IMG/VR virus record: IMGVR_UViG_2695420871_000012
Source: a virus
Taxonomy: Duplodnaviria; Heunggongvirae; Uroviricota; Caudoviricetes
Reading direction: 5' to 3' (one strand)
DNA: 29,870 bases
Made by a program: the position numbers and the translations under genes. The notes below the pieces were generated by a model. It ran no database searches. It was not told where the DNA came from and saw only the letters and a program-made list of their open reading frames with translations. Of the stretch, positions 24,669 through 25,033 are shown piece by piece. The first letter of the stretch is position 1. The number at the start of each line of letters is the position of its first letter.

Positions 24669-24927
24669 GTGCTTTTGGACGGGAGATTCAGCGTGCTGAT
24701 TGGCTATGTAAGGGTATCAACAAATGACCAGAATACAGACCTGCAACGAAACGCTCTTGTTTGTGCAGGATATGAACAAATATTTGAAGATAAATTAAGC
24801 GGAACAAGGACAGGCCGACCTGGATTAAAACGTGCTTTAAAGCGCCTTCAAAAAGGTGACGCACTGGTTGTCTGAAAACTGGACTGACTGGGTCACTGTA
24901 TGCGGCATCTTGTCGTGCTGGTGGTGG
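24669..24927 (+). pseudogene. pin: Pin/Gin/Hin-family serine DNA invertase, inactivated: nonsense codons at 24873-24875 and 24885-24887, then truncated at about codon 85 where it joins a tfa 3' remnant
   Basis: N-terminus VLIGYVRVSTNDQNTDLQRNALVCAGYEQIFEDKLSGTRTGRPGLKRALKRLQKGDALVV is close to E. coli Pin as recalled; homology continues past the stops (KLD*LGHCMRHLVVLV). Confidence 0.8.
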
Positions 24928-25033
24928 AAGCCTAGAAAAAGTATCGGGTGTTGCTGAACCGTGTTGATACATCAACTGCACCTGATATTGAGTGGCCTAC
25001 GAACCCTGTCAGGGAGTAATCATTGGGATTATG

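Follow-up and report, generated by a model that had tools for sequence, protein, structure and literature searches.

Does the loss of an invertase gene also stop the DNA switch that the gene once served? This question is raised by a tail-fibre locus in which an invertible segment stands next to the remains of a Gin/Pin-type invertase gene. The stretch of DNA analyzed here (the window) is a complete contig of 29,870 bp [CXEH01000067.1] from the draft assembly GCA_001259515.1. It carries a lambda-like tail region followed by a tail-fibre gene (15461–18238), with a 2890-bp invertible segment between two crossover sites, pix1 and pix2. A third crossover site, pixR or pix3, precedes the invertase remains. 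The elements of the switch are as follows:

17300–17329, minus strand: crossover site pix1, at the end of the constant part of the tail-fibre gene, inverted relative to 24613–24642
17330–20219, no strand: invertible tail-fibre segment of 2890 bp between inverted pix sites, encoding two alternative fibre C-termini and carrying two tfa genes
20220–20249, plus strand: crossover site pix2, followed directly by the invertase stump in two sister assemblies
24613–24638 (repeat to 24642), plus strand: 26-bp crossover site pixR/pix3, TTCTCGTAAACC GA GGTTTTAGATAA, which aligns with the Mu G-segment boundary (gix) and with the P88_4B11 site

An element of this kind was described previously in E. coli EC958. 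The tail-fibre regions of its prophages Phi1, Phi2 and Phi4 gave alternative PacBio contigs (Forde et al. 2014, PLoS One 9:e104400; PMC4134206). About half of the PacBio reads were inverted at Phi4, where the "truncated DNA invertase" was found to be severely truncated; inversion must therefore occur in trans, possibly by the invertase of Phi1, and the crossover sites of Phi1 are nearly identical to those of Phi4 (PMC4134206). The same authors placed the Phi4_3prime crossover site at c1487865..1487890 of EC958 and warned explicitly of artefactual duplications caused by mixed orientations in assemblies (PMC4134206).

EC958_1582, from Phi4 of this ST131 strain, and the stump of the window are the same element: positions 24560–25140 are 99.3% identical to EC958 1487812–1488392, with the same crossover site, three stops and junction, and the crossover sites of the window match those tabulated for Phi4. 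Thus, both the element and the idea of inversion in trans were already known (Forde et al. 2014), and in this respect the finding is an ordinary one. The EC958 paper, in contrast to the present analysis, contains no breakpoint map, tfa origin, gin/pinE mosaic or order of the stops (PMC4134206).

Structure of the invertase stump

The part of the invertase gene that is left consists of two blocks of different affinity:

24693–24924, plus strand: invertase stump, codons 1–77 of a Gin/Pin-type serine recombinase (Pfam and alignments to intact genes)
24693–24870, plus strand: 5' block of the stump, similar to Mu gin and P88_4B11 (identity counts against gin, P88_4B11 and pinE)
24871–24924, plus strand: 3' block of the stump, similar to e14 pinE (identity counts and BLAST)

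The true start codon is GTG 24693. In alignments it falls on the start codons annotated for Mu gin and for the P88_4B11 invertase gene, and it is preceded, as in both of them, by a Shine-Dalgarno-like GGAGA. An earlier note on this DNA had read the frame from 24669. The frame is indeed that of the invertase, but GTG 24669 is merely the first GTG of the open frame after a stop and lies upstream of the true start. Translation of 24669–25020 reveals three in-frame stops: TGA 24873–24875, TGA 24885–24887 and TAG 24933–24935. The two TGA codons had been located correctly in the earlier note, which expected Trp and Arg at these positions, while the TAG was missing from it. In alignments the first codon is TGG (Trp) in intact relatives, and the second is CGC in P88_4B11 and Mu gin and CGA or CGG in e14 pinE, all encoding Arg. 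In the stump the DRLGRS motif reads D*LGHC, its second conserved Arg having given way to His (CAC); the region of the active-site Ser (YVRVST motif) is kept as MLIGYVRVSTNDQ.

Intact phage invertase genes, taken with the crossover site upstream of them, match positions 24560–24883 with 96% identity (E = 5e-147). With its stops repaired, the stump matches Pfam Resolvase (PF00239) at 1.3e-21, over profile positions 2–85 of 145 only. Invertase homology ends at codon 77 (24924), while intact relatives have 184–199 codons. A functional invertase of the Din family requires an uninterrupted frame and the conserved DRLGRS Arg residues, and the stump has neither; also absent are the full catalytic domain, the oligomerisation helix and the C-terminal helix-turn-helix DNA-binding domain of a protein of about 190 residues. 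With the catalytic domain incomplete and the DNA-binding domain missing altogether, the stump cannot make an invertase. In complete genomes it is labeled by PGAP as "recombinase family protein, incomplete". Judged by its sequence, it is a pseudogene of a Gin/Pin-type serine invertase, a non-coding relic.

Comparison of the two blocks with intact genes revealed that (i) at 24693–24870, 173 of 178 bases are identical to Mu gin, 170 to P88_4B11 and 123 (69%) to e14 pinE; (ii) at 24900–24924, all 25 bases are identical to e14 pinE versus 13–14 in gin/P88; and (iii) 24854–24924 is placed on pinE by BLAST, with 84–89% identity. The changeover from gin-like to pinE-like sequence occurred within CTGGTTGTCTGGAAACTGGA, a stretch common to both types. 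Such a mosaic is the result of ordinary recombination between invertase alleles, and we infer that a gin/pinE-mosaic invertase gene existed before the fusion described below. A synthetic query for this unfused parent, made of the stump continued with pinE, gave only generic invertases with 78–79% identity in 5426 E. coli genomes.

The intact counterparts are instructive. In Mu and in the P2-like P88_4B11, the crossover site, the spacer, the ribosome-binding site, the GTG and the first 178 coding bases are 96–97% identical to those of the window, and the layout is the same: the constant fibre part, inverted sites, two fibre C-termini with two tfa genes, and then the invertase gene. Their invertase genes are complete (193–199 codons), whereas that of the window ends at codon 77, contains nonsense codons and is of the pinE type in its last 54 bases. 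The pinE gene of e14 (E. coli K-12) belongs to the same family of interchangeable invertases and, unlike the stump, is intact. The e14 Pin protein reportedly complements Mu gin mutants. The P segment of e14 inverts in culture (PMC4272514).

Junction of the stump with tfa

Downstream of the stump the following features were found:

24925–25020, plus strand: last 31 codons and stop of a lambda-type tfa gene, in frame with the stump, with TAG 24933–24935 in place of Trp (identity to tfa remnants)
25033–25068, no strand: palindrome (hairpin) with a 12-bp stem, between the tfa end and the convergent methyltransferase end
25074–25742, minus strand: class I SAM-dependent methyltransferase gene, first full cassette copy (Pfam Methyltransf_12/23/25; direct repeats D1–D3)

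The earlier note had suggested aligning the region with an intact invertase gene and with tfa remnants of the type found at 25900–26068 and 28100–28256. This alignment maps the breakpoint to 24924/24925, with G24924 as the last invertase-specific base and T24925 as the first tfa-specific one. Residual invertase homology thus does continue past both TGA codons, as the note had claimed, although it ends at 24924 instead of about 24927. The in-frame passage into the 3' end of a Tfa-like gene is also borne out, and this gene is the lambda-type tfa of the array of methyltransferase genes and tfa remnants. The opposite reading, in which the downstream sequence is genuine pin, fails at T24925, from which the sequence is that of tfa.

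Of the 96 positions of 24925–25020, 81 agree with the tfa remnant at 25974 and 85 with that at 28162. Both remnants match Pfam Caudo_TAP (2.3e-26), and the tfa copies read TGG where the junction element has TAG 24933–24935. The 31 codons match the C-terminal end of the lambda Tfa profile (Caudo_TAP, PF02413) carried by the neighboring remnants, and presumably the C-terminus of lambda Tfa itself. In a wider comparison, tfa/methyltransferase DNA of lambdoid phages matched 24922–25140 with 98.6% identity. This tfa part, labeled by PGAP as "tail fiber assembly protein, missing N-terminus", consists of the C-terminal codons only, with an internal TAG and without a start of its own, while a full-length gene has about 175–195 codons. 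Full tfa genes, covering the whole PF02413 profile, are located at 22615–23136 and 23168–23701.

The codon phase is kept across the join, GAA 24927–24929 being a codon in both parents. The fusion had been attributed in the earlier note to microhomology at a shared motif, GGAAGCCT(G/A)GA, and this part of its reading has to be abandoned. The motif is present in tfa only; at the same position pinE has GGAGTTGCGCGA and P88/gin has GGAACTACGGGA, and invertases differ from the 11-nt motif at 7–8 of 11 positions. The only contiguous bases common to the invertase and tfa at the join are GGA (24926–24928), as against the run of at least five shared bases typical of a microhomology junction. Similarity around 24924/24925 is patchy (6 of 9 positions). 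The pin-tfa join fits illegitimate recombination with almost no homology. We also considered an origin by invertase action at a quasi-site and rejected it, as nothing at 24912–24935 resembles a crossover site.

The palindrome reported downstream of the tfa end is real. It folds at -28.5 kcal/mol (z = -4.5), and further copies of it (repeat family D7) are located at 21870, 27228 and 28278. A 45-codon ORF on the plus strand (24992–25129) covers the tfa stop and the hairpin and extends into the convergent methyltransferase gene at its 3' end; it is annotated as the hypothetical protein WP_001309429.1 by the NCBI pipeline in many genomes and is probably a spurious call.

Inversion of the segment beside the stump

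Site pix1, inside the tail-fibre gene, is inverted relative to both 20220–20249 and 24613–24642, and in related loci the inverted partner lies 2.9–3.2 kb upstream of the stump-side crossover site. In these loci the same dead stump is accompanied by segments of one type (full-length identity of at least 95%) in both orientations. In particular, the 2890-bp segment type has opposite orientations in L044 and L052 on the one hand and L047 on the other. The flipped joint predicted for an exchange at the central GA is present as an exact 60-mer in the loci L037 and L053. Of the complete E. coli genomes, 375 have one joint type and 151 the other, many with 100% identity over 422 bases, also within ST131.

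A clean example is provided by the Swedish ST131 isolates 4/0 and 4/1-1. Their 9422-bp loci have no differences in 6343 bp of flanks, their inner 3079-bp segments are exact reverse complements, and both carry TGA/TGA/TAG. The polymorphic half-sites (TTCCTG/TTCTCG) are swapped between the two isolates, and the exchange is limited to roughly 12 bp common to both sites. Since the exchange is confined to these shared bases, the inversion is due to site-specific recombination; homologous recombination was rejected as the cause of the flips for the same reason, the half-sites being swapped as in a site-specific exchange.

Thus, the switch can outlive its invertase gene: exact inversions have occurred beside the stump in close relatives of the window. 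The description of the invertase as killed, given in the earlier note, is correct for the gene but not for the switch.

No cognate active invertase gene adjoins the segment, the adjacent gene being the stump, and no trans-acting invertase is visible in the 30-kb window. As the local gene cannot encode the enzyme, the inverting enzyme comes from elsewhere. An invertase of another prophage in the same cell can act in trans, and we infer that an enzyme of this origin is the one at work.

Candidate Fis enhancer and a possible role in cis

Besides the crossover site, a second element of the ancestral module can be recognized, within the stump itself:

24714–24777, plus strand: homologue of the Fis-dependent recombinational enhancer; 63 of its 64 bases agree with Mu gin
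24714–24728, plus strand: candidate Fis core GTATCAACAAATGAC
24763–24777, plus strand: candidate Fis core GTGCAGGATATGAAC

The two candidate cores were assigned by homology and by reference to the Fis sites of hin. In such modules the enhancer lies inside the 5' end of the invertase gene. Wild-type invertases of the Din family are inactive without a Fis-bound enhancer, which has a length of 65 bp and is normally located about 100 bp from one crossover site (PMC3798978). The candidate enhancer of the stump lies within the first 85 coding bases, its proximal end being about 95 bp from the center of the crossover site, and it is retained essentially unchanged in all junction loci but one. With the crossover site and the enhancer-homologous stretch both kept, the stump would retain everything needed in cis, and its own enhancer would presumably be the one used in inversion.

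It is tempting to go further and to regard the stump as a minimal cis module (crossover site and Fis enhancer) that may let a widespread lambdoid switch rely on the invertases of other prophages. That more than 500 E. coli/Shigella genomes keep it would then reflect selection for an enzyme-less switch. We offer this as a tentative proposal, about which we are inclined to be doubtful.

Alternatively, the stump may be neutral debris with no cis role beyond that of its crossover site, the segment being flipped in trans with the help of another enhancer or by a Fis-independent enzyme. The enhancer region shows no detectable excess of conservation over the remainder of the stump (variable sites 4/64 versus 14/147, Fisher p = 0.59), hence there is no signature of selection for keeping it, and enhancers are able to act from kilobases away (PMC3798978). 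Decay of this kind does occur: one locus, L025 [IMGVR_UViG_651053022_000007], has a further deletion of 109 bp corresponding to 24633–24741 of the window, which took away the start of the invertase gene together with the right crossover half-site and the proximal one of the two putative Fis sites, and the segment of this locus should be frozen. On the other hand, the need of wild-type invertases for a Fis-bound enhancer in cis (PMC3798978) argues against neutral debris, as does the essentially unchanged retention, in all junction loci but one, of the invertase 5' end, the only known enhancer position in such modules. We consider the stump rather unlikely to be debris of this sort.

Surroundings of the switch in the window

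An additional block of 4393 bp lies between the directly repeated sites pix2 (20220–20249) and pix3 (24613–24642). Within it are the last 417 nt of the constant fibre part in reverse complement, a methyltransferase copy without its first ~6 codons, a 100% identical inverted copy (2089 nt) of 17300–19388, and the following gene, which abuts the inverted tail-fibre fragment:

20644–21588, minus strand: IpaH-type effector gene, truncated to 314 codons, with the type III secretion LRR domain and a NEL E3-ligase domain that breaks off after its first ~46 residues

Two other assemblies with the same flanks, L061 and L062, do not have the block, and in them pix2 (20249) runs straight into 24618 and the stump. 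Neither in IMG/VR nor in E. coli genomes was the junction 22553/22554 found, and exact-protein look-ups of the chimeric ORFs (19332–20777, the truncated ipaH and the ISSso6 read-through ORFs) gave no match. The block is either a genuine rearrangement or a draft mis-join of a mixed-orientation population.

There are three copies of the methyltransferase cassette and its hairpin, at 21864–22553 (5'-truncated), 25034–25742 and 27222–27930; their starts are 3170 and 2188 nt apart. Lambda-type tfa 3' remnants bracket each methyltransferase copy. Downstream of the stump, the unit of methyltransferase, tfa remnant and hairpin exists in two full copies and one partial copy. A single cassette is found in EC958 and most relatives, and the amplification looks like the outcome of unequal crossing-over between the flanking tfa/hairpin repeats.

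After the tfa remnant of the middle unit and adjoining its hairpin, ISSso6 (IS110 family, "RNA-guided transposase" in some annotations) is located at ~26051–27224. Its transposase ORF, starting at 26147 or 26192, reads past the end of the element into the hairpin and stops at 27304. This insertion is shared with the IMG/VR contig L040 and absent in L029, L052 and L061. The truncated ipaH and ISSso6 point to a Shigella or enteroinvasive E. coli source; together with the amplified methyltransferase cassette and the extra 4.4-kb block at the crossover site, they distinguish the window from EC958.

Distribution of the junction and order of the lesions

The distribution of the element was analyzed in 5426 complete E. 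coli genomes with two queries, one of 581 nt (24560–25140) and one of 126 nt that includes the pinE-like block, each at a coverage of at least 80%. The junction was revealed in at least 426 genomes with the first query and in at least 542 with the second, and the 581 bases recur at 99.3–99.5% identity in many of them. The lambdoid prophages that carry it occupy different chromosomal sites, such as trpA/ompW (EC958), potB (TW10828) and prfC (Survcare253), and both the segments upstream and the sequences downstream of the junction vary among carriers. The exact 21-nt junction was also detected in 36 IMG/VR contigs. In a search of one genome per species, it gave only chance matches in unrelated high-GC bacteria and none in an enterobacterial representative. 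The occurrence of the same junction at several sites with differing surroundings indicates that it is old and was spread by recombination.

In total, 39 loci with an identical junction were compared at the three stop positions (24873/24885/24933). Twenty of them have TGG/TGA/TGG, one has TGA/TGA/TGG and 18 have TGA/TGA/TAG; the closest relatives of the window fall into the last group. TGA 24873–24875 and TAG 24933–24935 arose after the fusion, since 20 of the 39 fused loci have neither. On the evidence of these haplotypes, a single sub-lineage later acquired the first and the third stop by G-to-A changes, initially at 24873 and then at 24933. The Arg-to-TGA change at 24885–24887, alone of the stops, could predate the fusion.

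These data bear directly on the order of events proposed in the earlier note, in which nonsense mutations inactivated the gene first and a microhomology fusion at the 11-nt motif then replaced the 3' end of the invertase. For TGA 24873–24875 this order is refuted by the 20 loci that are already fused and do not have it. TGA 24885–24887, present in 39 of 39 loci, is compatible with either order; it and the alteration of both catalytic-motif Arg codons within 14 bases are what speaks for early decay. Against it, the supposedly shared motif is confined to tfa, and no unfused invertase gene with TGA 24885 or with the GGTCACTGT signature was found in the 5426 E. coli genomes. As a whole, the decay-first scenario appears improbable.

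It is also very improbable that the N-terminal peptide of 60–64 residues has a function of its own as a small protein, such as the modulation of other invertases. Its start codon and GGAGA are retained, and in some strains PGAP gives an intact CDS for a 64-aa "recombinase family protein". However, the length of the peptide varies with the haplotype (60 versus 64 aa), it is devoid of the DRLGR Arg residues, the dimerisation helix and the DNA-binding domain, and nothing is suggestive of selection acting on it.

Finally, sequencing or assembly errors as the source of the stops or the junction, a reading that could appeal to the draft status of the contig forming the window and to the suspicious perfect 2089-nt inverted duplication nearby, can be practically dismissed, because the 581 bases recur in hundreds of independent complete genomes and the same stops and junction are seen there and in IMG/VR contigs, 18 of 39 loci having all three stops.

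Probable origin and significance of the enzyme-less switch

The account that we consider highly probable, taken in its entirety, is the following. A Gin/Pin-type invertase gene, already a recombinant of gin-like and pinE-like parts, would have stood to the right of an invertible tail-fibre segment. Everything after codon 77 would have been lost by an illegitimate join, with at most three contiguous shared bases, to the last 31 codons of tfa, namely of the lambda-type copy preceding the methyltransferase cassette. The resulting relic carries the Arg-to-TGA change in every copy examined, and the lineage of the window later gained two G-to-A stops, Trp-to-TGA at 24873 and Trp-to-TAG at 24933. The stump still supplies the 26-bp crossover site and a putative Fis enhancer, while the invertase of another prophage would flip the segment in trans.

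To the description of this element in EC958, the present analysis adds the breakpoint at the level of single bases, the identity of the downstream part as tfa, the relative order of the lesions and a clean example of a flip between two ST131 isolates. Mixed orientations of such segments can create spurious duplications in assemblies. Caution is also required when invertible loci are scored from annotation, as a dead invertase gene may stand beside a live switch.
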